Virus record (IMG/VR): IMGVR_UViG_3300024246_000005
Span: 4,398-68,397 of that record
Source: a virus
Taxonomy: Duplodnaviria; Caudoviricetes
Reading direction: 5' to 3' (one strand)
DNA: 64,000 nucleotides
Positions 37,061 through 52,756 of this stretch are shown in pieces. Position 1 is the first letter of the stretch; each line of letters begins with the position of its first letter. The position numbers were made by a program, and so were the translations under genes. The notes under the pieces were generated by a model that made no database searches, was not told the origin of the DNA, and saw only the letters and a list, made by a program, of their open reading frames with translations.

Positions 37061-37063
37061 CCC

Positions 37064-37098
37064 TTGCGCCAGAACGCAAATTTGCGTATAAATCTTGC
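37064..37098 (+). promoter_or_regulatory. Promoter giving a leaderless mRNA for the glycosyltransferase cluster
   Basis: TTGCGC, 17 nt, TATAAA, then 6 nt to GTG 37099; no SD. Confidence 0.55.
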
Positions 37099-38964
37099 GT
37101 GCCAAAAATCGGGATAGTTACAAACTTAGGTTCTCGCGGACTGCTCCGCGATGCCACTCTCATTAAGCCAATAATCGAAGCGTTGGGATACGAAGTGCAG
37201 TTTCTTCAGTATGAGGAACCATGCGAAGAAACGTTCGCGCTTTGTATTTTTTTAGAGGTAACTCCACGCAGTTTGATTAAGTGCTCCGAAGCGCCGCCGT
37301 GGGTATTCGTCAATCCTGAGTTTCTCCGACCGGAGAACGTGAAGATTATCCAGCGGCATTTTTCCCGCGTGCTCTGCAAGACCCATGAAGCTCACCGTGT
37401 CTGCTCAGAAGTGTTTGGCGAGAAGGCGCGGTACGTCGGTTTCATTTCAGAAGACAAGCACGATCCGTCAGTACAGCGGATACACACGTTTCTCCACGTC
37501 GCCGGGAACAGTAAGGTCAAAGGCACTCAGGCAGTCATGGACGCTTGGAAGTGGCGCAGGAACGGAGAAGGATTGAACGCCAGCCTAGTCGTTGTGTCGG
37601 ACTGGCTGGAACAGAAAGACGCTCCGAACGGCGTAACTGTGTTCAGCAAGATTGACGACGCTGAATTGACGCGGCTACAAAACGCCTGCATGTTCCACTT
37701 GCAACCATCGGAGACAGAAGGATTCAGTCACGTAATCCACGAAGCGATGTCGGTGAACGCCACGATCTTAACGGTGGACGCGCCGCCAATGAACGAGATT
37801 CACTCGGTCTACAAGATTCCTTCCACTGGTCAGACCAAGCTGCACCTGGCCACGATGAACGAAGTTTCCGCACTGGACATCTATACCGCTGTGCGCGAGA
37901 TGTTGAAATACAAAGGACAGGGATTCGCCAAGCAGGGGATGCCGCGGGAAGAGTTCCTTGCTGGCAACGAAGCGTTCAAAGAAGCATTTACGGAGCAACT
38001 GAAAGACATGGAGCCAAAACAATTCAAGCCGGTCAATCGTCCAAAGTCTAAATCACCGTCCATCGCCTTCATCGGTAACTTCGCCGCAGAACACTCAACC
38101 GAAAATCAAATTTTGTGGGCATTGGAACAAGGTCTCGGCTACGAAGTCGAAAAGCTCCAAGAGAACGAGACCAACTTGGACGCCATTATGGAAGCAGCAC
38201 TCTACAACGGGCTATTGCTGTGGGTGCGCACTCCGGGTTGGTTAAAGGTTCCAGATGAGCATATGTTCGATGCGTTGGAGCACCTGAAAACAAATTACGT
38301 TAAGACATTCGCGGTTCACTTGGACAAGTTTTGGGATATTCCAGAACGGGAATCGCTAATCGGGAAGTCTCCGTTTTGGAATGTGGAATATGTATTTACC
38401 GCCGACGGCTCCCGCCAGAAAGATTTTGCCGCGCGTGGGGTAAATCATTTCTGGATGCGGCCAGCGGTCTCAGAAGTCTACTGCCATTCGGGAACGGTGC
38501 GGGAAGAGTACCGATGCGACGTTGGCTTTGTCGGAGCCAAGAACTACCACGAACAGTACCCGTTCCGCCGGCAGATGATTGAGTTTCTGGAACAGACCTA
38601 CGGAGAGCGGTTCAAACACGTTGAGGGAGTCCGCGGCCATCTTCTCAATGATGTATACGCTTCGATGAAGGTGGTTGTCGGGGATTGCTTCGGTGCCGGG
38701 ATTCCTTTCTACTGGTCCGATAGACTTCCAGAGACTTGCGGTCGCGGCGGTCTATTGCTGCATCCATTTGTAGAAGGCATGGAAGTTCCTTGCCCAAACT
38801 ACGCCCCGCAAGACTTGGACAACCTGAAATATCAAATAGATTGGTGGCTGGATGTGGACGAGTCAGAACGCAGGGTGGTGCGGCAGAATTGCATGGAGCA
38901 CGTCCGGCATCACGATACCTGGACGGACAGGATGGAGTGGATTCTTGAAACCGTTATGCGTTGA
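37099..38964 (+). CDS. Two-domain glycosyltransferase (GT4-like plus CgeB-like GT-B)
   Basis: FLHVAGNSKVKG...EGFSHVIHEAM (EX7E); second domain DVGFVG...LNDVYASMKVVV...SDRLPETCGRGGLLL. Confidence 0.85.
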   Translation: MPKIGIVTNLGSRGLLRDATLIKPIIEALGYEVQFLQYEEPCEETFALCIFLEVTPRSLIKCSEAPPWVFVNPEFLRPENVKIIQRHFSRVLCKTHEAHRVCSEVFGEKARYVGFISEDKHDPSVQRIHTFLHVAGNSKVKGTQAVMDAWKWRRNGEGLNASLVVVSDWLEQKDAPNGVTVFSKIDDAELTRLQNACMFHLQPSETEGFSHVIHEAMSVNATILTVDAPPMNEIHSVYKIPSTGQTKLHLATMNEVSALDIYTAVREMLKYKGQGFAKQGMPREEFLAGNEAFKEAFTEQLKDMEPKQFKPVNRPKSKSPSIAFIGNFAAEHSTENQILWALEQGLGYEVEKLQENETNLDAIMEAALYNGLLLWVRTPGWLKVPDEHMFDALEHLKTNYVKTFAVHLDKFWDIPERESLIGKSPFWNVEYVFTADGSRQKDFAARGVNHFWMRPAVSEVYCHSGTVREEYRCDVGFVGAKNYHEQYPFRRQMIEFLEQTYGERFKHVEGVRGHLLNDVYASMKVVVGDCFGAGIPFYWSDRLPETCGRGGLLLHPFVEGMEVPCPNYAPQDLDNLKYQIDWWLDVDESERRVVRQNCMEHVRHHDTWTDRMEWILETVMR

Positions 38965-39760
38965 TTTGTACTGCGGACTTGGTGGTTGGGCGGAAGGTTT
39001 TCTTTCAGAGGGTTACGACGTGATTGGATTTGACATCGAAAAACACGACTACGGAACCGGAGCGTATCCGGGCCAACTGGTTTTACAGGACGTGCTCTCG
39101 CTGCATGGTTCACAATTGAAACGGGCTAGGGTAATCGTTGCTTCGCCGCCGTGCCAAGAGCCGAGCTATCGCGCAATGCCGTGGAAGCGAGCCAAAGCAT
39201 TGAACGAAATCGGTCCACCGCACAAGTTCATTGAACTGTTCAACGCCTGTTTTAGGATTCAGCAGGAAGCATCGGAAGCGGCTGGACGGCATATTCCGCT
39301 CATCGTAGAAAATGTGATGGGCGCTCAACGATGGGTTGGCAGTGCAGCATGGCATTTTGGTTCGTACTATTTGTGGGGCGACCTGCCAGCATTAATGCCG
39401 ATTCCATCGAAATTGCGGAAGAGTTCGCACGTTCCTTTGGTCGAAACACCGCCTGGTACGGGCAAGACTTCATGGTTCTTTGGTAACTCAAAACACGAAG
39501 GCCAGAATTGGAGCAAGTTTGCAAAGACTGGTGAAGTCTTACCCCATTGGCGCATGGAAGCGCATCGAGATGATGTTGCGGGAGTAAAACAAAGAAACGG
39601 TGGTACTCAAGGATGGTTCGGAGAATACAAGCCTACCGGACAAGGTTCTAGGAATTTTTCTTCAAACTCAAAGGCACGCAAAGCCGCCAGTGCTCAAATT
39701 GCCAAAATTCCATTTCCTCTTGCTCGCCATATCGCGCAATGTTTCAAGGTGAACCAATGA
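38945..39760 (+). CDS. C5-cytosine DNA methyltransferase
   Basis: VDLYCGLGG (motif I), SPPCQ (IV), ENV (VI); TTG at 38945 after GGAG. Confidence 0.8.
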   Translation: MKPLCVDLYCGLGGWAEGFLSEGYDVIGFDIEKHDYGTGAYPGQLVLQDVLSLHGSQLKRARVIVASPPCQEPSYRAMPWKRAKALNEIGPPHKFIELFNACFRIQQEASEAAGRHIPLIVENVMGAQRWVGSAAWHFGSYYLWGDLPALMPIPSKLRKSSHVPLVETPPGTGKTSWFFGNSKHEGQNWSKFAKTGEVLPHWRMEAHRDDVAGVKQRNGGTQGWFGEYKPTGQGSRNFSSNSKARKAASAQIAKIPFPLARHIAQCFKVNQ

Positions 39761-40563
39761 TCCCCTGCTTCTGGCATTACGGCGGCCGCGGGGCGTGGTG
39801 CCAAACAATCGTGGAATTTCTCACGCGTGGCTGTGAGCACCAAATGGGCATAGGGCCAGCCGTTACCGCCGTGGTAGTGGTGAAAGCTGACGCAGTGCCG
39901 TCAGAGCAGCAGTTAAACGCTGACCTAGCGCAGATCGAGCGCGGCGTGCTGATAGTGACCGCTAACGAGGAAGGAACCTTCCGGCCAGAGCTGATTACTC
40001 ACCCACGGTTCAAAGTGTGGTTGCAGACTCCGGCGAAACATCAGTTTGCTCACCGATACTTGCCGTGGGGCTGGACGCCACTTCAGCACATGGACCTCGC
40101 GCGCCAATATGATTGGAGTTTTGCGGGACAGGTAACACACCAACGACGGGAACAGTGCGTGGAAGTGCTGCGAACTCTGCCACACGGCAAACTCGTTGTC
40201 ACTTCGGGGTTTTCGGAAGGGCTGGACCGTGAAACATACGCAGACCTGTTGCAATCGAGTAAAGTAATTCCGTGTCCGTCCGGTCCAATTACGGTCGATT
40301 CGTTTCGTTTCTGTGAGGCTTTAGAGTCGGGAGCAGTGCCGATTCCTGACGGTATCTCTCCGCGTGGTCCGTATTTCGATTATTGGAAGCGTGTGTTTGG
40401 TAGGCATTTTCCATTTGCAGTGGCATTCTCTTGGAATCACGCGCCGGGGATTCTTAGACAGATATTGGTAAATTGGGACGAGTTCTCCCGTGGCTCTACG
40501 GCATGGTGGAAAGATAAAAAACAGGAATGGATTCACCAGTTGCTTGAGGACATCCACGCATGA
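39757..40563 (+). CDS. Exostosin-like (GT47-like) glycosyltransferase
   Basis: WSFAGQ...YADLLQSSKVIPCPSG...SFRFCEALESGAVPI. Confidence 0.75.
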   Translation: MIPCFWHYGGRGAWCQTIVEFLTRGCEHQMGIGPAVTAVVVVKADAVPSEQQLNADLAQIERGVLIVTANEEGTFRPELITHPRFKVWLQTPAKHQFAHRYLPWGWTPLQHMDLARQYDWSFAGQVTHQRREQCVEVLRTLPHGKLVVTSGFSEGLDRETYADLLQSSKVIPCPSGPITVDSFRFCEALESGAVPIPDGISPRGPYFDYWKRVFGRHFPFAVAFSWNHAPGILRQILVNWDEFSRGSTAWWKDKKQEWIHQLLEDIHA

Positions 40564-41315
40564 ACGACATCACCGTACTCGTTCCAACGTCACCGATAAA
40601 AAGCCATCCGTCAACCGCCATCATACAAAAGGCCATTGCCTCAGTTCAGAAACACCTACCAGACGCAGAAATTCGGATAATGATCGACGGCATCCGCGAC
40701 GAGCAGAAAGAGTACTTGGAACGGTACGTGGACTACATCGGCAGGCTGGCGACCGAGGACTTCTTCTGCCAGGACAATATCCGGCTGTTTCCGTTCGTCA
40801 GTCACCAGCACCAAGTTGCCATGACGCGCCACGTCCTGAAAAGCGTCACGACTCCGCTGATAATGCTGCTCGAACATGACACCTTTTTCCTTGACGGTTT
40901 GCCAATAGACTTCGCGGGGATCGCCAGAGTAATTAAAGCAGGCCATGCGAATATGGTTCAGTTTCACTGCCAGTGGGAGCCGTGGATTATTCCAGAACAC
41001 GAACACCTAATGCTGGACAAGGAACGGAACTACATTGACGGTGTGCCGATGGTGCGGACGTGGCAATTCAGCGCGAGACCACACGTTGCGAGTACAGACT
41101 TCTACCGTGGGATGCTTTCCAGTTGGTTCACCATGAACGCCAGAACCTTCATTGAGGATAGGATGGTGGACGTACTGGCTGGTGCGCGCATGGCTATCGG
41201 GAACGATGCGTGGGAAGACTGGAAGTTGTTCTACTATGCGCCAGAAGGAACGATTAGAAGGACATGGACCGACGACGGCAGAGCTTCCGATCCTAAGTTC
41301 CCTATCACATACTGA
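40560..41315 (+). CDS. GT-A fold glycosyltransferase
   Basis: ITVLVPT...AIASVQKHLPDAEIRIMIDG...LIMLLEHD. Confidence 0.65.
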   Translation: MNDITVLVPTSPIKSHPSTAIIQKAIASVQKHLPDAEIRIMIDGIRDEQKEYLERYVDYIGRLATEDFFCQDNIRLFPFVSHQHQVAMTRHVLKSVTTPLIMLLEHDTFFLDGLPIDFAGIARVIKAGHANMVQFHCQWEPWIIPEHEHLMLDKERNYIDGVPMVRTWQFSARPHVASTDFYRGMLSSWFTMNARTFIEDRMVDVLAGARMAIGNDAWEDWKLFYYAPEGTIRRTWTDDGRASDPKFPITY

Positions 41316-41325
41316 AGAGGTCATT

Positions 41326-41748
41326 GTGGCCAAATCTAAAGAGGAAAGATACCAACAACAGCGAGAGTGGGGCAGGAGAAATAGAGAAAAACTTTTAGCT
41401 TACGGCAGAACATCTGCAAAATTATGGAGAGAACGACACCCCGAAAAGGTTAGATTCCACAGGAATGAATATCGCCGGAGACTTAAAGAATCTGCATACG
41501 ACAAACTCGGGAATAGATGCAACAACCCAGCGTGCCAGTGGTTAAATCCAGATGGGAGTCGAGGGTGCATAGACCGGAGATGTCTTCAAATTGACCATGT
41601 ATTTGGCGGTGGTTGCAAAGAAAGAGCTATATTCCGAGGAAGCTCACCACTATACATCGCAGTGATTCGGGACAATCACGGTAGATACCAATTGCTTTGC
41701 GCAAACTGTAATTGGATAAAGAGGTCCATGATGAAGGAACATAAATGA
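41326..41748 (+). CDS. HNH endonuclease
   Basis: CLQIDHVFGGG...YQLLCANCNWIK; GTG at 41326 after GAGG. Confidence 0.8.
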   Translation: MAKSKEERYQQQREWGRRNREKLLAYGRTSAKLWRERHPEKVRFHRNEYRRRLKESAYDKLGNRCNNPACQWLNPDGSRGCIDRRCLQIDHVFGGGCKERAIFRGSSPLYIAVIRDNHGRYQLLCANCNWIKRSMMKEHK

Positions 41749-41749
41749 C

Positions 41750-42493
41750 ATGCCAGACATCTTCATTCCAACCAGTGAAGTGACATTCTCCGAGAAGCTA
41801 GTCTGCGGCCGCTATCCGGTCAAAGTTCCGTCTTTCATGGACGTTCACAACTGGTGGGGAGAGTGGGAGACAGAGCGTTTCAGGTCAATGGAGACTCTGC
41901 TTGAACCGGGGATGCTCTTTTATGAAATAGGCGCTTTCGATGGTTGGCAGTCTGCAATTATCTCGCGCTTTGTTGGCGGCGGTAAAAACATGGTGCTGGT
42001 CGAGCCGGTAGCGGAGAATTGGGCGAACATCAAAGCCACTTGGGAAGCAAACGGAATCGGAAAGCCAGCGGTAGCGTTCAAAGGCTTCGTAGGAGTTGAG
42101 CAAGGACGGTCTGGCGCCGTGGTGAGTTTTAACGGAAACTGGCCGCAAGGCGTGGACTACTCCAAACTGATCGCGGTAACGAAATTCCAGCATATCAATG
42201 AGAACGCTGAGACCCCGGGAGTTCCACTAGACGTTCTGGCGTTTGTCGCCGGTTCACCGAAAGCCATCAATATCGACGTGGAAGGCGCTGAACTGATTGT
42301 TCTCAAAAGCGCGGAGATGGTCCTGCGAATCTGCTCCCCGATAGTCTGGATCTCCATTCACCCGGAATTTATGCGCGACCGCTACCAGCACGAACCGGAT
42401 GAAGTTCACGATTTCATGCGGCGACTCGGCTACGAAATGTACCTGCTCGGGATAGACCACGAAATGCACTATCTTTGCCGAAAGAAAATATGA
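41750..42493 (+). CDS. FkbM-family SAM methyltransferase
   Basis: FYEIGAFDG...VLVEP...INIDVEGAELIVLKSA. Confidence 0.8.
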   Translation: MPDIFIPTSEVTFSEKLVCGRYPVKVPSFMDVHNWWGEWETERFRSMETLLEPGMLFYEIGAFDGWQSAIISRFVGGGKNMVLVEPVAENWANIKATWEANGIGKPAVAFKGFVGVEQGRSGAVVSFNGNWPQGVDYSKLIAVTKFQHINENAETPGVPLDVLAFVAGSPKAINIDVEGAELIVLKSAEMVLRICSPIVWISIHPEFMRDRYQHEPDEVHDFMRRLGYEMYLLGIDHEMHYLCRKKI

Positions 42494-43230
42494 ACTTGAA
42501 AGACGTCATCACCCTAATCGTACCGACCTCCCCGGTGCCATCACACCCGTCCACGTGCCTAATAGAGAACGCAATCACCAGCATCCGCTACCACTTGCCC
42601 GACTGCCCAATGATTATTCAAGCCGACGGTGTGCGGCCAGAGCAGGAACAGTTCAAGACTCAGTATCAGATGTACCTCTTGCGGCTGGATGAGCACATCA
42701 ATGCCGGGAAGTTCGGGCCATGCAAGATGATTCGCTTCCCTGAATTTCGCCACCAAGCCGCAATGATGAAAGAAACGATGGCGAAGATCGAGACCCCACT
42801 GCTCGGATATTTCGAGCATGACTTTATCTTGCTTCCTGAATACGTGGACTGGAAGGGAATCGCAGACGCTATTCTCTCAAAGGAAGTCAACCAGGTCCGG
42901 CTGTACTATTGGTCCTCAATCATCCCGGAGCACTGGCACCTTATGGTTGACCGGGAACCCATCTTCGTTTGCGGAGTCCCTTTGCTTCGCACGGTGCAGT
43001 GGTCACAGCATCCACAAATCGCGTCCAAAGCTTTGTACGAGCAATTACTGGCCACGCTCTCAGATGATTGCAGAACCATGATCGAGAACGGAGTCTACGG
43101 TACAGTGCAGGCGCAACCGTGGGAACAGAATCGGTGCTCGATTTACGCGCCAATGCCATACTTGAAACGCGAAGCCCACCTGCACGCCAGGGAAGAACAA
43201 CCGAAGTGGGAAGAGACCTTCACGTTTTGA
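42490..43230 (+). CDS. GT-A fold glycosyltransferase, paralog of 40560-41315
   Basis: VPTSPVPSHPST...QADGVRPEQ...YFEHD. Confidence 0.65.
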   Translation: MNLKDVITLIVPTSPVPSHPSTCLIENAITSIRYHLPDCPMIIQADGVRPEQEQFKTQYQMYLLRLDEHINAGKFGPCKMIRFPEFRHQAAMMKETMAKIETPLLGYFEHDFILLPEYVDWKGIADAILSKEVNQVRLYYWSSIIPEHWHLMVDREPIFVCGVPLLRTVQWSQHPQIASKALYEQLLATLSDDCRTMIENGVYGTVQAQPWEQNRCSIYAPMPYLKREAHLHAREEQPKWEETFTF

Positions 43231-43973
43231 CACCAGAGCAAAAAGCCGACCGCGATAGCGTTTGGGAGCGCATAGCCCAAGAGCGCCCGGAGTTTACGCG
43301 TTCGATGGATTTGACCAACAACTACCACACGGTACGCGAGATCGTTTTAGGCGGTTCGCTGACGTGGCAGGAATCCAACAAGCGGTTCAAGCCATACCTG
43401 GGCGCGCGCATCATGGACATTGGAGCCAACGTGGGAATCTTTACCGCCTGGTGTGCCGCGAACGGTGCGCGAGTGGTGGCCTATGAACCGCATCCCCAAG
43501 TCTTCTCAGTGCTGACCGAAATGCTCAGTAGGAGCCAACTGCAAGCGCAGGTGGTTGCGGTGAACGCGGCAATCTCAGACCATAACGGAAAGATTCCGTT
43601 TCTGGCGCACGTCAATCCCGACCCTATGTGCATCTGGTACAACGGAGCGGTGGAAGCCGTAGCAGGGCCGTGGGTGCCAGACGACTACAAAAACTCCGTG
43701 CCGGTCCCTTGCGTGCGGTTCGCAGATGCCATTGGAGATACGGATTGGGACATGGTGAAAATGGACATTGAGGGCGCGGAGTTCCAGGTACTGCTGGCCG
43801 CTTCCCCGGAAGCCTTGCGCCGAATCAAATACTTGTATGTAGAATTTCACCCGTGGGGAACCGAAGATGCGTACAACCGGACCATTGAGAAACTGACAGA
43901 CATCTTCCACTTCACAGGATTCTTCCAAAACAACATTGGACGCTGGGAAGTCGGGTATTGCCACAGCCGCTAA
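43227..43973 (+). CDS. FkbM-family SAM methyltransferase
   Basis: IMDIGANVGIFT...VAYEP...MVKMDIEGAEFQVL. Confidence 0.85.
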   Translation: MTPEQKADRDSVWERIAQERPEFTRSMDLTNNYHTVREIVLGGSLTWQESNKRFKPYLGARIMDIGANVGIFTAWCAANGARVVAYEPHPQVFSVLTEMLSRSQLQAQVVAVNAAISDHNGKIPFLAHVNPDPMCIWYNGAVEAVAGPWVPDDYKNSVPVPCVRFADAIGDTDWDMVKMDIEGAEFQVLLAASPEALRRIKYLYVEFHPWGTEDAYNRTIEKLTDIFHFTGFFQNNIGRWEVGYCHSR

Positions 43974-43982
43974 ACTTTCCTC

Positions 43983-44018
43983 TTGACCGATTCGCAGTTT
44001 TGCGTACTATAGAACCCC
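43983..44018 (+). promoter_or_regulatory. Promoter giving a near-leaderless mRNA for the helicase-methylase
   Basis: TTGACC, 16 nt, TACTAT, then 8 nt to ATG 44019; no SD. Confidence 0.5.
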
Positions 44019-46259
44019 ATGACTAAATTCGCGTATTCGCAATTCCTGAAACAGAAACAAATTGTTCTGGAAGAGTCTGGAATGACTGTTGACAAAAAGA
44101 CTCTCAACCCAAAGCTATTTGAGTTTCAGGCCGACATAGTGGCATGGGCGCTTCGCAAAGGCCGCTCTGCAATCTTCTGCGACTGTGGTATGGGCAAGAC
44201 GGTTATGCAATTAGAGTTTGCTCTAAAGGTTCCTGGGAAGGTCTTAATCCTGGCACCTCTAGCGGTTGCGCAACAGACTGAGCGTGAAGGTGCCAAGTTT
44301 GGAATTGACGTGCTGTACTCTCGCCAGGCAGTAGACCGCAAAATTACCATCACCAACTACGAGATGTTGGAGCACTTCAATCCGTCCGATTACAACGGCA
44401 TAGTCCTAGACGAATCCAGCATCCTTAAATCTTTCGATGGCAAGTTCCGTACAGAGATTACCGAAGCGTTTTCAAAAACACCCTATCGGCTGGCATGTAC
44501 TGCGACCCCTGCACCGAACGATTACATGGAGCTTGGAAACCATTCGGAGTTTCTTGGGGCGCTGACGCGCACCGAGATGCTCTCGACGTTCTTCGTGCAT
44601 GACGGCGGGGATACCGCCAAATGGAGACTGAAACGCCACGCCGAACGGGATTTCTGGAAGTGGATATGCTCTTGGGCGGTAATGATGCGGAAGCCGTCCG
44701 ACTTGGGCTATTCCGACGAAGGTTTCATTCTTCCTCCGCTGCACTTTCATGATGTGACACTGGACGCGATTAAACCGACAGAAGGGATGCTGTTTGCCAT
44801 GCCAGCATCCACGTTGCAGGAACGGCGCAGCGCTAGGTCATCGAGTATCGAAGAACGGGCCGCAGAAGTGGCTCGCATTGTGGCGTCTAAGCCGAAAGAG
44901 CCGTGGCTGATCTGGTGCAACCTAAACTCCGAAAGCGATGCGGCTGTTTCTCTAATACCAGGAGCGGTCGAGATTCGCGGTAGTGATGAACGATCAGACA
45001 AAGAGGCGCGGATGCTGGCATTTTCTGCCGGCGAGATTCGGGTTCTGGTTACAAAACCAAGTATCTGCGGATGGGGAATGAATTGGCAGCATTGCCCCAA
45101 CGTGGCATTTTTTGGCCTGAGCGATTCCTATGAGCAATTTTACCAAGCAGTGCGACGTTGCTGGCGGTTCGGGCAAGAGAAACCCGTCCACTGCTACATC
45201 GTAACGAGTTCCAATGAAGGCGCTGTGACCGAGAATATCAAACGCAAAGAGAAAGACGCCGCGAGGATGGCCGAGGAAATGGTAAATAACATGCACGAAC
45301 TAAACCAGAAAGAAATCAAAGGGAACGACATCCGAAAGAACGGAGAATACAAAACCAAGACCGAAAAAGGGATCGGATGGGAAATGCGGCTTGGGGATTG
45401 CGTCGAGCAGATGCGCGGGATTAAATCCAACAGTCTGCATTACTCGATCTTCTCTCCACCGTTCGCTAGTCTCTACACGTACTCTGCCAGCGAGCGCGAC
45501 ATGGGGAATTGCCGCACGCACTCTGAGTTCTTTCACCACTTCAATTTTCTAGTGCTTGAGTTGCATCGGGCATTGATGCCAGGGCGACTGGTTAGCTTCC
45601 ATTGCATGAACCTTCCCACATCCAAAGAGCGGGACGGCGTGATCGGGATTACAGACTTTCGCGGCGAACTGATTCGCATGTTCCAGTCGGCGGGTTTTAT
45701 CTACCACTCCGAAGTGTGCATTTGGAAAGACCCTGTGACCGCAATGCAGCGCACGAAGGCGCTCGGGTTATTGCACAAGCAAATCAAGAAAGATTCCTGT
45801 ATGAGCCGGCAAGGGATACCGGATTACCTTGTGACCATGCGGAAGCGCGGCGACAACCCTGAGCGCGTAACCCACACCAATGAGACTTTCCCGGTATCGG
45901 TTTGGCAGCGGTATGCCTCGCCGGTCTGGATGGACATAAATCCAAGCGATACCCTACAGAAAGAATCGGCCCGCGAGAACGAAGATGAGCGCCACATCTG
46001 CCCATTGCAATTGCAGGTCATTCGTCGGGCGATGGAACTGTGGAGCAACCCCAAAGACCTCGTTCTTTCTCCATTCGCTGGAATCGGCAGTGAGGGATAC
46101 GTCGCGCTAGAAATGGGGCGCCGGTTCCTCGGGATGGAACTGAAAGAGAGTTACTTTAAGCAGGCGGTGGCAAATCTACGTGCTGCAAAGTCGCACGCTA
46201 CAGGACTGTTCGCGGGAGACATTGAGGAAGTATCCACGGTTCAGGTTGGCGATGACTGA
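44019..46259 (+). CDS. SF2 (SNF2-like) helicase fused to an N4/N6 DNA methyltransferase
   Basis: DCGMGKT, LDESS, QAVRRCWRFGQ; then FSPPF and VLSPFAGIGSEG (motif IV before motif I). Confidence 0.9.
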   Translation: MTKFAYSQFLKQKQIVLEESGMTVDKKTLNPKLFEFQADIVAWALRKGRSAIFCDCGMGKTVMQLEFALKVPGKVLILAPLAVAQQTEREGAKFGIDVLYSRQAVDRKITITNYEMLEHFNPSDYNGIVLDESSILKSFDGKFRTEITEAFSKTPYRLACTATPAPNDYMELGNHSEFLGALTRTEMLSTFFVHDGGDTAKWRLKRHAERDFWKWICSWAVMMRKPSDLGYSDEGFILPPLHFHDVTLDAIKPTEGMLFAMPASTLQERRSARSSSIEERAAEVARIVASKPKEPWLIWCNLNSESDAAVSLIPGAVEIRGSDERSDKEARMLAFSAGEIRVLVTKPSICGWGMNWQHCPNVAFFGLSDSYEQFYQAVRRCWRFGQEKPVHCYIVTSSNEGAVTENIKRKEKDAARMAEEMVNNMHELNQKEIKGNDIRKNGEYKTKTEKGIGWEMRLGDCVEQMRGIKSNSLHYSIFSPPFASLYTYSASERDMGNCRTHSEFFHHFNFLVLELHRALMPGRLVSFHCMNLPTSKERDGVIGITDFRGELIRMFQSAGFIYHSEVCIWKDPVTAMQRTKALGLLHKQIKKDSCMSRQGIPDYLVTMRKRGDNPERVTHTNETFPVSVWQRYASPVWMDINPSDTLQKESARENEDERHICPLQLQVIRRAMELWSNPKDLVLSPFAGIGSEGYVALEMGRRFLGMELKESYFKQAVANLRAAKSHATGLFAGDIEEVSTVQVGDD

Positions 46260-46878
46260 CCAAGACCGCGAATCTCTTTGGGAAATCTGCGTTAACGAGC
46301 ATCGCTACACGCCCAAAGTTGGCGACTCCGTTCTGGACATCGGCGCGCATCACGGCTGGTTTTCTCTCTACTGCGCGACGCGCGGCGCAACGGTGTCGGC
46401 TTACGAGCCGGATCCAGTAGCGTTTGAATACTTGGAGAGCCAGGTCCATGTTTCCCTAAAATGCGGAGGAACAATCATTACGCCACACAAAGCGGCCGTT
46501 TGGAGCGAAGAGGGGCAGAAGCTACTTTGGCAGCGACCAAACCACATCGCCAACTCCATGCTGCGACCTTCTGAATACTCGGTCTTGGTCAAGACAATAT
46601 CTCTCAAGCAAGCGCTGGCCGGAACAAAATGGGATTGCGTGAAATGCGATGCAGAGGGCGCGGAAGCGCAGATATTCCTAACGGCGAAACATGAAGAATT
46701 TGCGCTCATCGGCTTCCTCACAATAGAGCTGCACAGCGACGTTCTGACACTCGACCAAGACAATGCTTTGGTGCGGACATTCCGCGAGCATTTCGGCAAG
46801 GTAGATGCGGTGCCAGAATTGAAAGAAGGCTTTCCAACCGGACGGACGGCTAAGATGTTTTGCTGGGGGCGCGTATGA
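46252..46878 (+). CDS. FkbM-family SAM methyltransferase
   Basis: VLDIGAHHGWFS...SAYEP...VKCDAEGAE. Confidence 0.8.
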   Translation: MTDQDRESLWEICVNEHRYTPKVGDSVLDIGAHHGWFSLYCATRGATVSAYEPDPVAFEYLESQVHVSLKCGGTIITPHKAAVWSEEGQKLLWQRPNHIANSMLRPSEYSVLVKTISLKQALAGTKWDCVKCDAEGAEAQIFLTAKHEEFALIGFLTIELHSDVLTLDQDNALVRTFREHFGKVDAVPELKEGFPTGRTAKMFCWGRV

Positions 46879-47840
46879 AAGATGTCGTCGTTATCTGCAC
46901 ATACAAACGCAACGAGCTACTGTATTGCTGCCTCAAGAGAGTACGAGAAGCCGACGCGCAGGTTCCAATCCTTCTTTTCCCTGACCGTGGAACATGGAAA
47001 GACCGAGAGTTACAGTCCATTTCTACGAAGTTTTCAGCAGAGATCGTCCACGTTCCCGATCACGACCATTACGGCAATTCTTGGAACGCCGGAGAAGCAC
47101 TGCGCTACGTCTACCACGCCGGATTTGAGTTGGTTCACTATCTGGAAGACGATGCTTTTGTAAAACCGGATTTTTTCACATGGACGCGCCAGGGGCATGA
47201 GAATTTCAATGACATATTCTGTTCGGCGGGATGGGTGTTCAACCTCCATTCCCCGTTGGATTCAGGAGACTACTTCGTTCCGTGGCTCTATATCCCACAG
47301 TTTTCGATCAAGAGAGATAAACTGGCACTCATCTATGAGCATCTCGGGCCGAAGTATTACACCGAAATGCAGGGCTACATCGAAAAGCATTTCAAGGGGA
47401 ACGTCCTGAACAAGATGTATACGGACATCCTGCACTTTGAGATCGACGGCCTTATTCAGAGGATTATCTTTGAGGACAGGTCTCAGGTGTTATGGCCGTC
47501 AATCGCCAAAGTCGAGCATATGGGGTTCGGTGGGTACAATCGCGGCGGATACGAGCGGTACGAAGAGTTTTTCTCTGACTTTTCGGCAAACACACTGACC
47601 GCGCGCGTCGAGGCCATCGAGTCAGTTTTCGAGGATGTCCACTGGCGAGCGAATGTGTTTGGAAAATCCATCATTGAAAGAGAAATTGGCGCGGAGATAG
47701 TGAAGCGGGAGTTTGTCTACCGGATAGAGCTTCCTGGCGGCTGGACCTCTGAATACAAGTCGGACCTTAGAAGGGCTTTACTGCCGCGGCGTATAAATTC
47801 CGTAAATGTGCCTCACAATGCGGAGATTGTGTTAGCATAA
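46875..47840 (+). CDS. GT-A fold (GT2-like) glycosyltransferase
   Basis: VVICTYKRNELL...LVHYLEDDAFV. Confidence 0.7.
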   Translation: MKDVVVICTYKRNELLYCCLKRVREADAQVPILLFPDRGTWKDRELQSISTKFSAEIVHVPDHDHYGNSWNAGEALRYVYHAGFELVHYLEDDAFVKPDFFTWTRQGHENFNDIFCSAGWVFNLHSPLDSGDYFVPWLYIPQFSIKRDKLALIYEHLGPKYYTEMQGYIEKHFKGNVLNKMYTDILHFEIDGLIQRIIFEDRSQVLWPSIAKVEHMGFGGYNRGGYERYEEFFSDFSANTLTARVEAIESVFEDVHWRANVFGKSIIEREIGAEIVKREFVYRIELPGGWTSEYKSDLRRALLPRRINSVNVPHNAEIVLA

Positions 47841-47895: not shown

Positions 47896-48573
47896 ATGCC
47901 GCCATACAGTTCCAATCAAGGCAATAACACGCCTGTCGCTTTGCTCCAACCTGGGGTAAACGGCTATGCCTTTGGTTCTTTTCCTGCCAGTTCACCAGTT
48001 CTGCGCGGCTCCATTACTCGCGCTGGTGTCTCTTCAAACGTTGGCGTGATCGAGTTCCAACTCCTTGAGGGGAATGTCCCGTCGGTTGGAGATTTAATCA
48101 GTGTAAGCGGTGCGTCACCTTCATATCTGAACGTCACAAGCGTTCCCCTCGCCGTGGTTCTCGTTTCCGATCCATTGACCGGACTCTTCTTGGTTGACTT
48201 CGCGCTTGTCCATGCCGATGTTACGTTTGCGGCCGCTTCAGGGATGATCTCCATTGTTCCAGGTGAGGCAGGAGAGACTTTGGCGGCCGGTTCAAGCCAA
48301 GCCTTTGCTATCCCGGACGAAGCTGGATACAACGAAAACGGAAAGACAATTACCTGGAGCACGCGCTATCCATCGGCTCCGTCTGGCGTGACCATGACGC
48401 TGCAAGCTGCGATGGTGAACGAGGATAGCCAGTACGTCACCCTCGACACCAGCACCAATACCTCTGGTGAAATTCGTTCGCTGACACTGCGGCTTTATCG
48501 GTTCTTGCGTGTCACAGCATCCGGCATCTCTGGCGGAACGCTTCCAACGGCGGTTGTGCGACTCTCGATCTGA
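47896..48573 (+). CDS. Beta-rich virion-associated protein (putative)
   Basis: 225 aa; AGGAG RBS; C-terminal YRFLRV beta motif. Confidence 0.55.
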   Translation: MPPYSSNQGNNTPVALLQPGVNGYAFGSFPASSPVLRGSITRAGVSSNVGVIEFQLLEGNVPSVGDLISVSGASPSYLNVTSVPLAVVLVSDPLTGLFLVDFALVHADVTFAAASGMISIVPGEAGETLAAGSSQAFAIPDEAGYNENGKTITWSTRYPSAPSGVTMTLQAAMVNEDSQYVTLDTSTNTSGEIRSLTLRLYRFLRVTASGISGGTLPTAVVRLSI

Positions 48574-48575
48574 GG

Positions 48576-51182
48576 ATGACGATGAAACGAAAAATTCTGT
48601 TTTTGCTCCTGCTCTTGTGCGGGGCCATTCCTGCGTTTGGCCAGCATCGGATGCCCGTTGGAACGATGATGAGCGCCAGCGGGAAGACCATCTATTCGGA
48701 TTACTCAGCGCGAGAACTTTCCAAGCCGGAACCGCAAGCCATCTCCATCACGCAAGAAGTCGTCGTGGATTATCAGTGCGTGCCGAATCCCGGAAACCCG
48801 TCTTCTGGCAACGTGCGGCTTTACTGCGACTCTGGAACCGGCCAACTGACGTGCCTCACTTCTACAGGAGCATCTTGTCTTTCAGGCGGTAGCGGCGGAG
48901 CAAGTGTTTCAAGTGTTGGTCTTGCGGCTCCAACAGGGATTCAAGTTTCAGGGAGTCCGGTCACAACGTCCGGCACACTGAGTTGGGCCATGCCTTCGGG
49001 CTGGATTCTTGGAGACCTTTTAGCAGGGAATGGAAGTAATTCGGTGGCGCGAGTGGCTGCGCCTACGACGCCAGATGACGTAGGCCAAGTGTTCGTATCG
49101 ACGCCGCTTTCTGGTGTTGGACAGATAGGCGCATTTGCGCTTCCGGGCCTCCCCGGACGCGCAACTTCTTCGTGTCCCGATACCATTCTTTCAACCGACC
49201 GCAAACCGGCAACGATCGAATATCAAAATACGGCCGCGTGCGCCGTTACGGTTCCAGATCCCGCCAGCGCAGGGTTTACCTCCAATCCGGCTTTCATCAC
49301 GATTGCGGAAGGAACTGCGGCGGTCACGTTTACCGTGCAGACTTCGGCGGTCATGGAAGTTTGCAACGGTTCACTCTGTGATCCAGGACAATCTTCTCTT
49401 ACCCTTCTGCCAGGACAATCTGCTTCATGGTCATCGCCGACAACATCAAATTGGCTGGTGCGCGTCAGTGCCGTTGGAACGGCCGCGCTTCCCATTTTCA
49501 ATAACCAGTTAATTTCTGGCGGCGGCGTGGTCTGGACGGGTGGCCTAAATTTCACGGTCGGCGCCGCGGTCTACAGCATCGCCAGCACGCAATATTCTTC
49601 GCCGCAGACCAACGTCACTCTTGCCGCGGCCGACCCGACCAATCCTCGGATCGACGTGATCGCCGTGAACACTTCCGGTGCAGCGGTCGTCATTACCGGG
49701 ACGCCGGCTGGAAGCCCTTCGGCTCCTACGGTGGACCCGACCAGCCAACTCGCGCTGACTTTCGTGACGGTGGCTGCGAACGCTACGACTCCGACTCTCA
49801 GCAGCATTTTGGTGTACGACGAAAATTCCACGCCTCCGACCGAATGGACTTGCACGCCTTCCTCGAACTTTAACTGCAACTCGACCAACAATCCGTATCA
49901 CTCGACGCACGACATTGAGGCGACCACGGCAGTAGCGGGAAACAACGTGGTGTTGGTCAACAACGCGACGATCAACCCGTCCTCGTACACCACTTTCTCT
50001 TTCAATATTCGGAACAAGGCTTCGTGGCCGAACCAGAAATCCCTTTCGATTTGTTTCAAGAACGGCTCCACGACGGTAGGGGTCTGCCTCGGTTTCAAGA
50101 ATGGCGTGTTTGGATACAACCAGGCCAACATCACCGGATACCAGCAGATTGTCGTTCCGCTTTCGCAATTCCAGCTTGGCTCGACTTCCGTTGACCGTGT
50201 GAGTTTCACGGTCACAGGTGGCGGCGGCTCCATCGGCTTCTATCTGGACTACATGCAGATCCAGAGCGCGCTGAGTGGGGCGGGTTCGTCAGTTTTCCAA
50301 CTCCAAGTCAACGGAGCCAACACGCAGCCGACCGCAACGCTTACCGATAGCGCCAGCGTGACATTTTCTCAGTCAGTACAAAACGGAGTGAGTTCAATCA
50401 CGGCGACCGCTCTCGGCGCTCCACCGTCCGGTGCGGCTGGCGGCGATTTGCAGGGGTCCTATCCCAACCCGACCACAAAAAACATCTCGACCGCTACAAC
50501 GATGGCGGGAACCATCGTTTCGACCAACACGGCGGCACCAAGTTCGCCAGCATCAGGCAAAGATTCTATTTTCACGGACAGCACGGATCTGAGGCTGCAC
50601 GACAAAAACGCCAGCGGAATAATCGGAACAACGGTTGTGTCCGATACCGGCGCTTCCAATAATTTTCTGACCGCCATTGCATCCAATGGGGCCATCAGTA
50701 AAGCGCGGCCAACGTGCGCGAATCTTTCGGACTCCACCGCAAGCTGCTCTACCGACGCTACCAATGCTTCCAACATCAGCACCGGGTCACTGCCGGATGC
50801 GCGCATCTCCGCTAACGTCAGAACTCGCGGCTTGGCGTTCTCGATCGGCTCGCCCGGTGGCACGGCACTGACGGTTTCGGCGAACACCACCGACTATCTG
50901 ACCGTTCCGTTTGCCTGCACGATCAATGCCTACAACTTGACCATCGATAGCGGGACCATCACGGTGAAGTTTTGGAAGGTTGCGACGGGCACCGCAATTC
51001 CGACCAGCGGCAACTCGATCTCGACGAGCGGTGTCGGGATCGCCACCGGCACGGCGATTCACTCCACGACCACTTCCGATTTCACGACTACGACCGTCAC
51101 GGCCAACGACATCATGGCCATGAATGTGACCGCCGTATCGGGGGCAGCGTTTGTCAACGGGGTGCTCTCTTGCCAAGAGTGA
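48576..51182 (+). CDS. Tail-fibre-like mosaic protein with signal peptide and CBM-like module
   Basis: MKRKILFLLLLLCGAIPAFG|Q; AADPTNPRIDVIAV; GYQQIVVPLSQF...FYLDYMQI. Confidence 0.65.
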   Translation: MTMKRKILFLLLLLCGAIPAFGQHRMPVGTMMSASGKTIYSDYSARELSKPEPQAISITQEVVVDYQCVPNPGNPSSGNVRLYCDSGTGQLTCLTSTGASCLSGGSGGASVSSVGLAAPTGIQVSGSPVTTSGTLSWAMPSGWILGDLLAGNGSNSVARVAAPTTPDDVGQVFVSTPLSGVGQIGAFALPGLPGRATSSCPDTILSTDRKPATIEYQNTAACAVTVPDPASAGFTSNPAFITIAEGTAAVTFTVQTSAVMEVCNGSLCDPGQSSLTLLPGQSASWSSPTTSNWLVRVSAVGTAALPIFNNQLISGGGVVWTGGLNFTVGAAVYSIASTQYSSPQTNVTLAAADPTNPRIDVIAVNTSGAAVVITGTPAGSPSAPTVDPTSQLALTFVTVAANATTPTLSSILVYDENSTPPTEWTCTPSSNFNCNSTNNPYHSTHDIEATTAVAGNNVVLVNNATINPSSYTTFSFNIRNKASWPNQKSLSICFKNGSTTVGVCLGFKNGVFGYNQANITGYQQIVVPLSQFQLGSTSVDRVSFTVTGGGGSIGFYLDYMQIQSALSGAGSSVFQLQVNGANTQPTATLTDSASVTFSQSVQNGVSSITATALGAPPSGAAGGDLQGSYPNPTTKNISTATTMAGTIVSTNTAAPSSPASGKDSIFTDSTDLRLHDKNASGIIGTTVVSDTGASNNFLTAIASNGAISKARPTCANLSDSTASCSTDATNASNISTGSLPDARISANVRTRGLAFSIGSPGGTALTVSANTTDYLTVPFACTINAYNLTIDSGTITVKFWKVATGTAIPTSGNSISTSGVGIATGTAIHSTTTSDFTTTTVTANDIMAMNVTAVSGAAFVNGVLSCQE

Positions 51183-52756
51183 TCCGCGCTCTGCTTCTTT
51201 TTCTGGTGCTGCCATTTTCGGCGGCGGCTCAGTACTACTACGTTCCGGTCACGCAATCCACCGGGACTTCGGTAAACGCCTCCAGTGTAAGTTGCGTCTT
51301 CAGCCGGAACGTGACCAGTGGAAATATCCTGATCGTCAGCATGAATTGGTACAACACCACCAATACTCCAACGGTTTCGGATACGCTCGGCAACACCTGG
51401 ACGCAGAAGTACATCAATACAGTCCCGACCCAGCCCGTCGCGCTCTATACGGCCACGTCCTCCTCTTCCGGGGCCGATACAATCACGGTGGCTATCACGG
51501 GAGGCGGGTATATCAACTTGGCTTGTTCGGAGCACCCGCCGATTTTTTCACTCACGGTTGACGCATCGGCTTCCAGCGCATTTTCTGGCTCCCCTGGAAC
51601 CGTCACCACCAGCAGCATCACCACCACGAAAAAGAGCGATTTTATTTATTCGTGGATTGGCGGATTTCAGAACGGCGGCCGATTCGTAAACCAGACCAAC
51701 TCGACGCTGCTCTACTATTCCAGCGGGAATGACTGTGGCGCGGCTCAGTATCGGTTTTCCGGGGCGACCGGAAGCTACTCCGATAGTTTCACGAACAACA
51801 ATACCCAGGGCACCAGCGCCATCGTTGCTTTTCAGCCGCTCGGATTGACGATCGACAGCGCCACCGCGTTGCCGGACGCCGCACTTTCAAACTCTTACAG
51901 CTACACCGTTCCGGCCAATGGTGGCATTGCCTCGTACACTTGGAGCGTTAGCGCCGGCACGTTGCCAACTGGACTTTCGCTGAACTCAAGCACTGGAGCG
52001 ATCACCGGCACGCCCACGGTCAGCAACAACTACAGTTTTACGTTGCAAGTCACGGACGGCACTAGCACTACCACCAAAGCCGTGACGATCAAGGTTTGTA
52101 CCGGTTTCAACACGCCTGCGTTTGTTCAGTTTAAGGCGTTTACATCCGGCACTGCGGTAATGACCTCAAGCCCGACCGCGGGGAACCTTCTCGTAGTCTT
52201 TGGCGGCTACAACCTGCAACGTGGCGAGCATCAATACTGCACCGACACGCGGAACACGGTTTTTACGCCGCTCGTGGAGTACGGTTGGTACCAATCAGCG
52301 TTCGCAGGGAACCACATTTTTGCGGGCCTCGTCCCATCGACAGGTGCGGACACCGTAACCTGCACAGACGGCCAATATGTAGCGGAATTTTCCAATCTTC
52401 AACTCGCAGGAAACGATAACCTTTCTCAACTGTTGGCCAGCAGTGCGAGTCCGATCTCTTCGACCCTGACAACTTTGGTGCCCAACGAAGCCATTGTGTC
52501 ATGGGGAGAGACCTATACCGGGGCAGGGCAATTGACGGTCACCGGAGCCTTCACAGGAATTGCGAGCGCAGGCGCTCTTAGCTCGGACAACCCTTCTTAC
52601 GATCTTGCAACAACAGTTACCAGTTACACATCGAGCTACACGATGACCGCAAACACCGATGGCCATTGGTACATCAGCATGGCGGGATTCAGGCCAGCGG
52701 CAAATGGAACGGTGACGCCGCCACCAAGCGGTGCTAACCGCGGGAGAATTTTATGA
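51179..52756 (+). CDS. Exported Ser/Thr-rich protein with putative Ig (He_PIG-like) domain
   Basis: GTG at 51179: MIRALLLFLVLPFSAAA|Q; YTWSVSAGTLPTGLSLNSSTGAITGTPT. Confidence 0.75.
   Translation: MIRALLLFLVLPFSAAAQYYYVPVTQSTGTSVNASSVSCVFSRNVTSGNILIVSMNWYNTTNTPTVSDTLGNTWTQKYINTVPTQPVALYTATSSSSGADTITVAITGGGYINLACSEHPPIFSLTVDASASSAFSGSPGTVTTSSITTTKKSDFIYSWIGGFQNGGRFVNQTNSTLLYYSSGNDCGAAQYRFSGATGSYSDSFTNNNTQGTSAIVAFQPLGLTIDSATALPDAALSNSYSYTVPANGGIASYTWSVSAGTLPTGLSLNSSTGAITGTPTVSNNYSFTLQVTDGTSTTTKAVTIKVCTGFNTPAFVQFKAFTSGTAVMTSSPTAGNLLVVFGGYNLQRGEHQYCTDTRNTVFTPLVEYGWYQSAFAGNHIFAGLVPSTGADTVTCTDGQYVAEFSNLQLAGNDNLSQLLASSASPISSTLTTLVPNEAIVSWGETYTGAGQLTVTGAFTGIASAGALSSDNPSYDLATTVTSYTSSYTMTANTDGHWYISMAGFRPAANGTVTPPPSGANRGRIL

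Follow-up and report, generated by a model that had tools for sequence, protein, structure and literature searches.

Positions 37099-47840 of the window (the whole 64,000-nucleotide stretch of DNA analysed) hold six glycosyltransferase (GT) domains and three FkbM methyltransferases, as an earlier note on the sequence had read them, and this inventory is borne out by Pfam and PHROG matches, predicted folds and family alignments. About one-tenth of this uncultured 68-kb phage genome is given to glycan-building and methylating enzymes. A cytoplasmic pathway that uses host NDP-sugars to build a multi-residue, methylated glycan is well supported by folds and family matches, by conserved synteny, by domain fusions and by the sugar-nucleotide enzymes that the cassettes of relatives contain. 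With about even confidence, we propose that this membrane-free phage cassette glycosylates and methylates a phage-encoded late protein, most likely at the virion surface. The acceptor is the least certain part, and gene position and analogy suggest that it would be among the late or virion proteins that the phage itself encodes. Of the earlier interpretation, the methylated-glycan pathway stands through folds, synteny and fusions, and a Ser/Thr-rich virion acceptor is what we still infer.

Organization of the block and its enzymes

The block comprises 11 ORFs (O1 to O11), all on the + strand, most of which are joined by overlaps of 4-8 nt. Only two intergenic gaps occur inside it, and the 45-nt one, which precedes O9, carries a TTGACC-16-TACTAT site. 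No membrane segments were found in the block proteins (hydrophobic 19-residue windows all <=1.55), in agreement with the earlier statement that TM anchors are lacking. Neither an SDR epimerase nor a nucleotidyltransferase was found in the phage genome, in line with the earlier note, which saw no nucleotide-sugar synthesis gene in the block, and an initiating phosphoglycosyltransferase, flippase, polymerase and ligase are absent. The cassette genes are translationally coupled, encode soluble products and lie within a long late (morphogenesis) operon. The description of the block as promoter-led found no support in a consensus scan, in which promoter-like sites were no commoner than in shuffles and none preceded O1; in one relative (L001), only 3 nt separate the GT gene from the preceding gene. 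The block is a segment of one long co-directional late operon. For the upstream ORFs, labelled ejection genes in the earlier note, the sole lead is a weak language-model match to P22 gp16.

The six GT domains are of four types, namely GT4, CgeB-like, GT-A (from two families) and a compact GT-B resembling exostosin and A075L. O1 (37099..38964) is a two-domain protein with a GT4-type GT-B N-terminal half and a CgeB-like (Glyco_trans_1_2) C-terminal half. Its residues 134-234 matched Glycos_transf_1 (PF00534) at 27.8 bits (cut-off 26.4). The C-terminal half matched phrog_28745 (E 2.9e-42) and scored 22.1 bits with PF13524 (Glyco_trans_1_2), short of the cut-off of 25; most homologues carry a precomputed PF13524 assignment. 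O1 has 183 homologues, the best 120 of which are 45-64% identical, many being encoded on 62-68 kb contigs. E207 and E215 are invariant in the family, with E-x7-E spacing. O3 (39757..40563) was modelled as a compact, exostosin-like GT-B fold resembling GT47/GT114 (pLDDT 88.7). The closest solved structure is A075L, which leads other GT-B folds by only about 1.2 Z units and is marginal by sequence (profile E 0.36).

O4 (40560..41315), whose ATG overlaps the O3 stop (ATGA), is predicted to be a GT-A glycosyltransferase of an unnamed family. It had no match in Pfam or PHROG searches; its model (pLDDT 88.5) adopts a GT-A fold, with Foldseek probabilities of 1.0 to RmlT, TarS, SpsA, TarP and GalNAc-T2, and both O3 and O4, which the earlier note had called GTs, are modelled as GT folds. 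Where a DxD motif is expected, the family has invariant E105 and D107 flanking a nearly invariant H106. O7 (42490..43230) is a paralogue of O4, a second GT-A enzyme with 36% identity to it and the invariant columns in common; two related loci (L009 and L015) likewise carry two O4/O7-type copies. O11 (46875..47840) is a GT2-like GT-A glycosyltransferase with a DxD-type motif (E96 and D98 invariant, D97 nearly so). Six of its 12 orthologues matched the GT2 Pfam models PF13641/PF00535, and a profile search retrieved a weak match to GnT-I.

All three FkbM-family SAM methyltransferases passed the PF05050 (FkbM) cut-off of 22.7 bits: O6 (41750..42493; 48.6 bits; phrog_8156, E 2e-14), O8 (43227..43973; 59.2 bits) and O10 (46252..46878; 25.9 bits; phrog_8156, E 3.5e-16). 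Orthologues of O6 were found in most relatives, and those of O10 in three (L001, L007 and L012) at 50-56% identity.

The remaining three of the 11 ORFs are not glycan enzymes. O2 (38945..39760) is a probable C5-cytosine DNA methyltransferase, starting within the 3' end of O1 at a TTG (38945) preceded by GGAG. Its translation shows the motifs DLYCGLGG, SPPCQ and ENV, and it matched phrog_363 DNA methyltransferase (E 2e-9) and scored 18 bits with Pfam DNA_methylase, under the cut-off of 22. It is missing from all five complete relatives, and an SDR epimerase/dehydratase occupies its slot in the closest ones. O5 (41326..41748) is a small Cys-rich ORF that, judging by its motifs (CNNPAC ... IDH ... 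LCANCN), may be a homing nuclease of the HNH/endonuclease VII type. It had no profile match in Pfam or PHROG searches and no counterpart in any related locus searched, and is weakly similar to an endonuclease VII-like ORF at 18208-18885 (E 0.003). Profile matches identify O9 (44019..46259) as a fusion of an SNF2-type helicase and an N6/N4 DNA methyltransferase (PF01555, 57.5 bits; Helicase_C, 27.7 bits; phrog_16, E 8.6e-76); it was found in one of the five complete relatives, elsewhere in that genome. Since O2, O5 and O9 are absent from relatives or located elsewhere in them, they are accessory insertions of this genome, unrelated to the glycan module.

Conservation, domain fusions and origin

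Sixteen related IMG/VR phage loci carry the core module as well, with GT identities of 42-64%. In the 14 informative loci the order O1 - O3 - O4/O7 - FkbM - O11 - dn1 is kept (dn1 being the gene that follows the block here), O11 is conserved in all 14, and the cassette comes after the same large upstream genes. A reduced module, consisting of a CgeB-like GT followed by FkbM, was detected in nine unrelated phage loci; in two of them (L017 and L018) it lies directly 5' of the genes for the large terminase and the portal, a synteny of the kind that the earlier note had suggested looking for. The family of O4 numbers 1953 clusters when grouped at 50% identity, and in most of its members the O4 domain forms the C-terminal part of an O3-O4 fusion. 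This fusion is the commonest architecture in the family, most top matches are fusions of 500-600 aa, and it is also present in six of the nine unrelated loci. Other natural fusions join CgeB and FkbM (L022), CgeB, exostosin and O4 (P0251), and exostosin, O4 and GT4 (P0287 and P0342), which places all four GT types and FkbM in one pathway. The cassettes of relatives also hold GMD-like SDR (NDP-sugar) epimerase/dehydratases, Methyltransf_11/24 enzymes and additional GT2s. Across relatives, the major capsid protein stays 69-91% conserved, whereas the accessory content of the cassette varies; a stable capsid with changing accessory genes fits a fast-evolving surface trait.

Recent passive capture of a host LPS/EPS locus, an origin raised in the earlier note, left no sign in these comparisons. 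No near-identical host locus was retrieved: the best non-self homologue of O8, the closest for any FkbM, is 57% identical, its homologues sit on phage-sized contigs, and those on cell-sized contigs reach only 31-36%. Among 185,579 species genomes, only two short MAG contigs matched, at 37-38% identity.

Candidate acceptors and competing explanations

Immediately downstream, dn1 (47896..48573, +) encodes a conserved 225-aa Ser/Thr-rich protein (S+T fraction 0.21), a candidate acceptor or partner that follows O11, directly or past one to a few ORFs, in 13 of the 14 relatives. Its leads are all weak (Gp53-like_C, E 0.06; viral hypothetical clusters in Atlas), and it may be tail-fibre related. The next genes (48576..57255, +) encode three large Ser/Thr-rich proteins, putative acceptors with S+T fractions of 0.26, 0.25 and 0.30 and Ig-like repeat domains (He_PIG, Cep192_D4, ASH, DUF1573). 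Relatives carry equally Ser/Thr-rich, non-homologous proteins at the same place, several with signal-like leaders. As a point against a virion acceptor, the major capsid protein has no obvious Ser/Thr-rich tail. According to the proposed mechanism, the GTs would draw on host NDP-sugars and transfer sugars stepwise to the acceptor in the cytoplasm, and the FkbM enzymes would use SAM to O-methylate some of them. Accessory enzymes differing among related phages would diversify the glycan. The likeliest acceptors are the Ser/Thr-rich products of the genes just downstream (fibre or Ig-repeat proteins) or the capsid, and the virion would then be coated with glycan much as mycobacteriophage and chlorovirus particles are.

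Two of the three Ig-repeat proteins have hydrophobic, signal-peptide-like N-termini, which fit poorly with cytoplasmic virion assembly. The cassette could instead modify these signal-bearing proteins in the cytoplasm before Sec export, as bacteria do with serine-rich-repeat adhesins (GtfA/B/C), TibA/AIDA-I (TibC/Aah) and HMW1 (HMW1C). The exported products would then be cell-surface or released adhesin-like proteins and not classically assembled virion parts, which we consider unlikely. It is also doubtful that the soluble GTs and FkbM enzymes remodel the host envelope by acting on lipid-linked O-antigen, capsule or LPS-core intermediates, thereby, for example, blocking superinfection or keeping progeny from sticking to debris. 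O-antigen and capsule loci normally consist of GT2, GT4 and FkbM enzymes free of membrane segments that work on lipid-linked intermediates, so the soluble cassette is still compatible with a host-glycan target; the GMD-like sugar-nucleotide enzymes of relatives are typical of such loci, and a PF05050 control search yielded matches in cellular genomes. However, no initiating phosphoglycosyltransferase, flippase, polymerase or ligase goes with them, the block proteins lack membrane segments, and no closely similar cellular locus was found. Nor was a tyrosine or serine integrase found in the genome, and therefore there would be no long-lived lysogen to convert, and the cassette lies within late operons beside head or tail genes even in unrelated phages.

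DNA hypermodification, in which the GTs would glycosylate modified bases and the methyltransferases tailor the sugars to evade restriction, is very improbable, and the earlier note had already ranked DNA as the less likely acceptor. Neither a thymidylate-synthase-like hydroxymethylase nor ThyX was found in the genome, the DNA methylases are outside the module and absent or elsewhere in relatives, a C5 cytosine methylase indicates that the DNA contains ordinary cytosine, and the T4 match was no better than the GT-B background. Six GT domains with sugar O-methylation are, to our knowledge, more than DNA glycosylation systems contain. We give just as little credence to a free cytoplasmic methylated polysaccharide or glycosylated small molecule that alters host metabolism during infection. 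Mycobacterial polymethylated polysaccharides are a precedent, but the match was within the GT-B background, neither a hydrolase nor an acyltransferase of the kind used in such pathways was seen, and the late-operon position by structural genes in several phage lineages would be left unexplained.

Comparison with known systems

The capsid-glycan machinery of PBCV-1 comprises A064R, A075L, A111/114R and A061L (PMC9614988, PMC11571054), of which A075L builds the capsid-protein glycan (PMC11571054). The comparison covered O3, which resembles A075L. PBCV-1, a giant virus, infects a eukaryotic alga and carries N-linked glycans on Vp54, whereas the present cassette belongs to a tailed phage whose acceptor we infer. 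Bacillus subtilis CgeB, involved in spore-crust glycosylation, belongs to the same Pfam family as the C-terminal half of O1, relatives of which score up to 70 bits against Glyco_trans_1_2, but its cellular context is entirely unlike a phage cassette.

The earlier note knew of no characterised podovirus-type phage with this enzyme combination. The claim holds within the records searched, since O3 and O4 had zero tblastn matches in 50,697 GenBank phage records. The O1 halves and O11, however, have true homologues, by HMM comparison, in the GTs of the cultured Streptomyces phages Kela and Dryad. The N-terminal half of O1 was matched by Kela gp48 (E 6e-58) and the C-terminal half by Dryad gp34 (E 2.2e-55), while O11 was matched by Kela gp49 (E 3.6e-45), whose annotation is glycosyltransferase. 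These genes sit within structural gene arrays or at their end: Kela gp48-gp49 lie two genes 5' of the major tail protein, and Dryad gp34-gp36 follow tail and lysis genes, with a methyltransferase two genes downstream. These sets number only two or three genes, have the O1 halves in separate phages and lack an O3-O4 enzyme.

Virion O-glycosylation has been assigned to gp108-110 of mycobacteriophage Che8, and also occurs in Corndog and Myrna (work of Freeman et al. 2023, as cited in PMC12619734 and PMC13445384). The Che8 proteins did not match the O1, O3, O4 or O11 family HMMs at E <= 10, which weighs against the proposed function. Their genes sit apart from the structural operon, at the right end of the genome and with no methyltransferase annotated there, and mycobacteriophage hosts are actinobacteria. 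The likeness is that soluble GTs are encoded by a tailed phage, as in the present cassette. In Che8, capsid and tail-tube subunits are glycosylated, which shields virions from antibodies (PMC12619734, PMC13445384), and no other phage is known to us in which the function we propose has been proven by experiment.

Gene content of the block

The eleven ORFs at 37099-47840 are all on the + strand and belong to one long stretch of + strand genes running co-directionally from about 4.5 to 57.6 kb. The window covers most of a 68,397-bp IMG/VR record with a CheckV completeness estimate of 100%, and the genome carries genes for the small terminase, the large terminase and RecT. Most genes of the block overlap by 4-8 nt; only two internal gaps (1 and 45 nt) occur, and the flanking gaps measure 38 and 55 nt. 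The earlier note had called the block promoter-led. A consensus scan scored at or below shuffle expectation, leaving a distinct promoter 5' of the first ORF, O1, unsupported. In the 38-nt gap before O1, a short inverted repeat (37063-37094; TTGCGCCAGAACGCAA) overlaps a promoter-like TTGCGC-17-TATAAA, and the scan reported this repeat only as a terminator-like site on the minus strand. The 994-aa protein encoded upstream gave no match in PDB and Pfam searches; its only lead, a weak one from the Atlas, was to P22 gp16.

Six glycosyltransferase (GT) domains and three FkbM methyltransferases had been counted from the sequence, and profile searches, family alignments and two structure predictions gave the same number. 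O1 (37099-38964, 621 aa) is a fusion protein in which a GT4-type and a CgeB-like (Glyco_trans_1_2) domain are combined. Its residues 134-234 align to PF00534 with 27.8 bits, above the gathering cut-off of 26.4, and most homologues carry a precomputed PF00534 match. E207 and E215 are invariant over 27 sequences and form the E-x7-E motif of the C-terminal Rossmann domain, by which the GT4 family is defined. Against the CgeB-like profile PF13524 (gathering cut-off 25) O1 reaches 22.1 bits; relatives exceed the cut-off (70.4 bits for the fusion protein P0251 and 48.1 for locus L022), and the domain is precomputed on most homologues. The predicted structure of O3 (39757-40563; pLDDT 88.7) is a compact GT-B of the exostosin-like kind (GT47/GT114, A075L type) and shows the exostosin donor-site motif. 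In sequence-profile searches O3 stayed below the cut-offs of both PF03016 (17.1 bits, cut-off 33.4) and PF24785 (19.8 bits, cut-off 27); fused relatives score 28-32 bits.

O4 (40560-41315) is predicted to adopt a GT-A fold (pLDDT 88.5), in keeping with the expectation that these ORFs would model as GTs. Foldseek aligned it with probability 1.0 to RmlT, TarS, SpsA, TarP and GalNAc-T2 (E 1e-8 and TM 0.5-0.6 for RmlT, TarS, SpsA and GalNAc-T2), and a BFVD search matched viral GT2s. O7 (42490-43230) is a paralogue of O4. At the expected strand end this family has E105-H106-D107, which is non-canonical with respect to DxD; the E and D are invariant and the H is at least 90% conserved. The GT2-like O11 (46875-47840) lacks a Pfam match itself, but six of its 12 orthologues match PF13641/PF00535 (best E 2e-8), and E96-D97-D98 is conserved in the family. 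The FkbM profile PF05050 (cut-off 22.7) was exceeded by O6 (41750-42493; 48.6 bits), O8 (43227-43973; 59.2 bits) and O10 (46252-46878; 25.9 bits). Run against PDB sequences, the O1 and O4 family profiles retrieved nothing, and O8 produced chance-level matches only.

The absence of membrane anchors and of nucleotide-sugar synthesis, both read from the sequence in the earlier note, was borne out. No enzyme of the block has a 19-residue Kyte-Doolittle window above 1.55, and by this measure none is a Gtr-type integral-membrane flippase or glucosyltransferase (GtrA/B/C). A search of the genome found neither an SDR epimerase/dehydratase nor a sugar nucleotidyltransferase, so the phage must use host NDP-sugars.

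The description of the whole block as a glycan system holds for these eight ORFs and fails for O2, O5 and O9, which are non-glycan insertions. O2 (38945-39760, + strand) encodes a probable C5 cytosine methylase with the motifs DLYCGLGG, SPPCQ and ENV; it matches DNA methyltransferase PHROGs and remains below the Pfam cut-off. O5 (41326-41748, + strand), small and rich in Cys, shows an HNH/endonuclease VII-like pattern of motifs only and has no profile match; in O9 (44019-46259, + strand) an SNF2 helicase and an N6/N4 DNA methylase are fused. None of the three had a match in 25 related loci. Of five complete relatives, none has O2 and one has O9, located elsewhere in its genome. Judged from these sequence comparisons, all three are accessory insertions. 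A DNA-modification cluster, as the two DNA methylases and the SNF2 domain might suggest, was rejected on the grounds that they are absent or located elsewhere in relatives.

Several further observations concern gene traffic. The slot between O1 and O3, occupied here by the probable C5 DNA methylase, holds an SDR NDP-sugar epimerase/dehydratase in the closest relatives (L001:11860-12711 and L005:12194-13174), which looks like gene replacement within an otherwise conserved cassette. The only SNF2-DNA methylase homologue among the five complete relatives (G005:C1:59880-62224) aligns in three pieces, one with an internal TGA, and may be split or decaying. Three scattered nuclease-like ORFs lie in the late operon, at 18208-18885 (endonuclease VII-like), 22828-23388 (GIY-YIG homing endonuclease) and 41326-41748 (HNH-like), suggesting active traffic of homing elements in this phage clade. 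The major capsid protein gene (16834-18168 in the window) is in two pieces in two relative genomes (G003:C1:60864-62851 and G005:C1:34638-36604), with several hundred bases between the pieces and, in G003, stop codons; an intron or a homing-endonuclease insertion could account for the split.

Conservation, reduced forms and origin

O1 has 183 homologues, of which the best 120 are mostly full-length, with 45-64% identity and many on contigs of 62-68 kb. A single-sequence pattern scan of IMG/VR retrieved nothing. An alignment-based scan retrieved 25, 16 from the same phage clade and nine from unrelated phages, and it answered the call for a search for GT and FkbM synteny: gene order is kept in the clade, and a reduced form occurs in the nine unrelated loci. 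Synteny was counted in the 14 of the 16 clade loci that had enough downstream sequence. O3, an O4-type gene and O11 follow in the same order in all 14; FkbM genes are present in 12, one of them as an upstream fragment only; and the gene for a 225-aa Ser/Thr-rich protein (47896-48573 in the window) follows O11 in 13. The clade loci also share the same large genes upstream of the cassette. Between these fixed points accessory genes vary, comprising one or two GMD-like SDR enzymes, extra GT2s, Methyltransf_11 and Methyltransf_24. The major capsid proteins of five relatives are 69-91% identical to that of the window, so cassette content changes faster than the capsid. Such fast turnover of accessory sugar enzymes among close relatives suggests that the glycan is under diversifying selection.

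The module is mobile. In the nine unrelated loci only the CgeB-like half of O1 is present, with an FkbM gene after it in every case, and in six of them O3 and O4 form a single protein of 515-625 aa. In L017 and L018, the large terminase and portal genes come directly after this reduced cassette. The O4 family profile, searched exhaustively, retrieved 1,953 clusters at 50% identity (513 at E <= 1e-30), and the best matches were mostly proteins of 500-600 aa in which the O4 domain is C-terminal. The N-terminal half of one such protein is 35% identical to O3 (E 6e-43). Given these fusions and the ATGA overlap of the O3 stop with the O4 start, O3 and O4 of the window are the split form of a two-domain enzyme. 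Other fusions join CgeB-like and FkbM domains (L022), CgeB-like, exostosin-like and O4 domains (P0251), and exostosin-like, O4 and GT4 domains (P0287 and P0342). Each core GT type and FkbM is thus joined to another by at least one fusion, which is strong evidence for a single pathway, and the cassette very probably operates as one system that builds and methylates a glycan.

Recent capture from a host LPS/EPS locus was rejected. No near-identical host locus, which the earlier note had named as the sign of passive capture, was found. A scan of prokaryote genomes, one for each of 185,579 species, retrieved only two MAG contigs (Micrococcales and Actinomycetes), both short and 37-38% identical. 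For the FkbM protein O8, the nearest non-self homologue is 57% identical, and cell-sized contigs matched at 31-36% only. Among 50,697 GenBank phage records, tblastn with O3 and O4 and megablast with the whole block found no match. Atlas structural neighbours of the 225-aa protein encoded after O11 are small hypothetical proteins, mostly from Acidobacteriota, a weak hint as to the host phylum.

Candidate acceptors of the glycan

We give virion proteins about an even chance of being the acceptor; they would then receive a methylated glycan from the cassette. Several unrelated lineages of phages carry the cassette within a late or morphogenesis operon, which favours a phage late protein as the acceptor; by analogy, viral precedents do so too. 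Homologues in structural regions of Streptomyces phages favour it as well. In cultured phages of this group, homologues exist for O11 and for each half of O1: gp48-gp49 of Kela are encoded two genes ahead of the major tail protein, and Dryad gp34 follows tail and lysis genes, with a methyltransferase two genes further on. A search of the genome for tyrosine and serine integrases found none, which also favours a late protein and led us to reject lysogenic seroconversion. Remodelling of the host envelope is improbable in our view. The GTs and FkbM enzymes of O-antigen and capsule synthesis are likewise soluble, which speaks for it; the missing lipid-carrier, flippase and ligase genes favour a phage late protein. 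DNA is an unlikely acceptor, in agreement with the earlier note. PF00303 and PF02511 (hydroxymethyl-pyrimidine synthesis/ThyX) had no match at E <= 0.1 in the complete 68,397-bp record, so the genome is without a thymidylate-synthase-type hydroxymethylase, the synthesis gene expected for DNA glycosylation of the T4 and related types, or ThyX; the DNA methylases are not members of the module, and a C5 methylase implies ordinary cytosine in the phage DNA.

The three large proteins encoded downstream (48576-57255) consist of 25-30% Ser+Thr and contain Ig-like repeats, and relatives encode equally Ser/Thr-rich, non-homologous proteins there. Two of the three, and several of those in relatives, start with signal-peptide-like leaders. 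The cassette might be the phage counterpart of bacterial adhesin glycosylation, with cytoplasmic O-glycosylation and methylation of leader-bearing Ig-repeat proteins followed by Sec export. If the leaders are real, glycosylation must come before export, as it does in the bacterial serine-rich-repeat, TibA/AIDA-I and HMW1 adhesins. We consider this improbable; if true, part of the host-recognition or surface apparatus would mature outside the cytoplasm as a glycoprotein. Late proteins that are rich in Ser/Thr and have a signal-peptide-like or lipoprotein-like N-terminus are encoded in the window at 48576-51182, 52753-57255, 30053-30766 and 30766-31191, with non-homologous counterparts at the same place in relatives (L007:15543-18215, L008:20196-21416, L016:18663-19322 and L004:21082-21528).

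Significance and known glycosylation systems

Should virion proteins prove to be what the cassette coats, uncultured environmental phages would commonly glycosylate themselves with methylated sugars. The O3-O4 family supports this possibility by its scale: it alone comprises about 1,950 clusters at 50% identity, none in sequenced phage isolates. A glycan under diversifying selection would bear on host range, on how phages escape lectin-like or antibody-like recognition and on the stability of particles in soil or water. As predicted from its genes, the cassette would also offer enzymology a compact, soluble, multi-step glyco-methylation pathway.

To our knowledge, glycosylation of phage particles is proven in a few mycobacteriophages only, and Che8 is the sole proven case in a tailed phage. 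GTs of mycobacteriophage Che8 glycosylate its capsid, according to passages in PMC12619734 and PMC13445384 that cite Freeman et al. 2023. Che8 gp108-110 had no match to the four family profiles (hmmsearch, E <= 10) or in blastp (E <= 0.01), and are thus unrelated in sequence to the GT families of this cassette. The O3 model is structurally closest to A075L, a beta-xylosyltransferase that builds the N-glycan core on the chlorovirus major capsid protein and is the founder of CAZy family GT114 (PMC11571054). A profile alignment revealed a donor-site motif common to both, but other GT-B enzymes follow closely, so that this is a resemblance rather than proof of membership. In the chlorovirus system, soluble, multi-domain, virus-encoded GTs together with a methyltransferase domain act in the cytoplasm on the capsid protein (PMC9614988). 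Taken as a whole, this system is the best analogue for the probable mode of action of the cassette.
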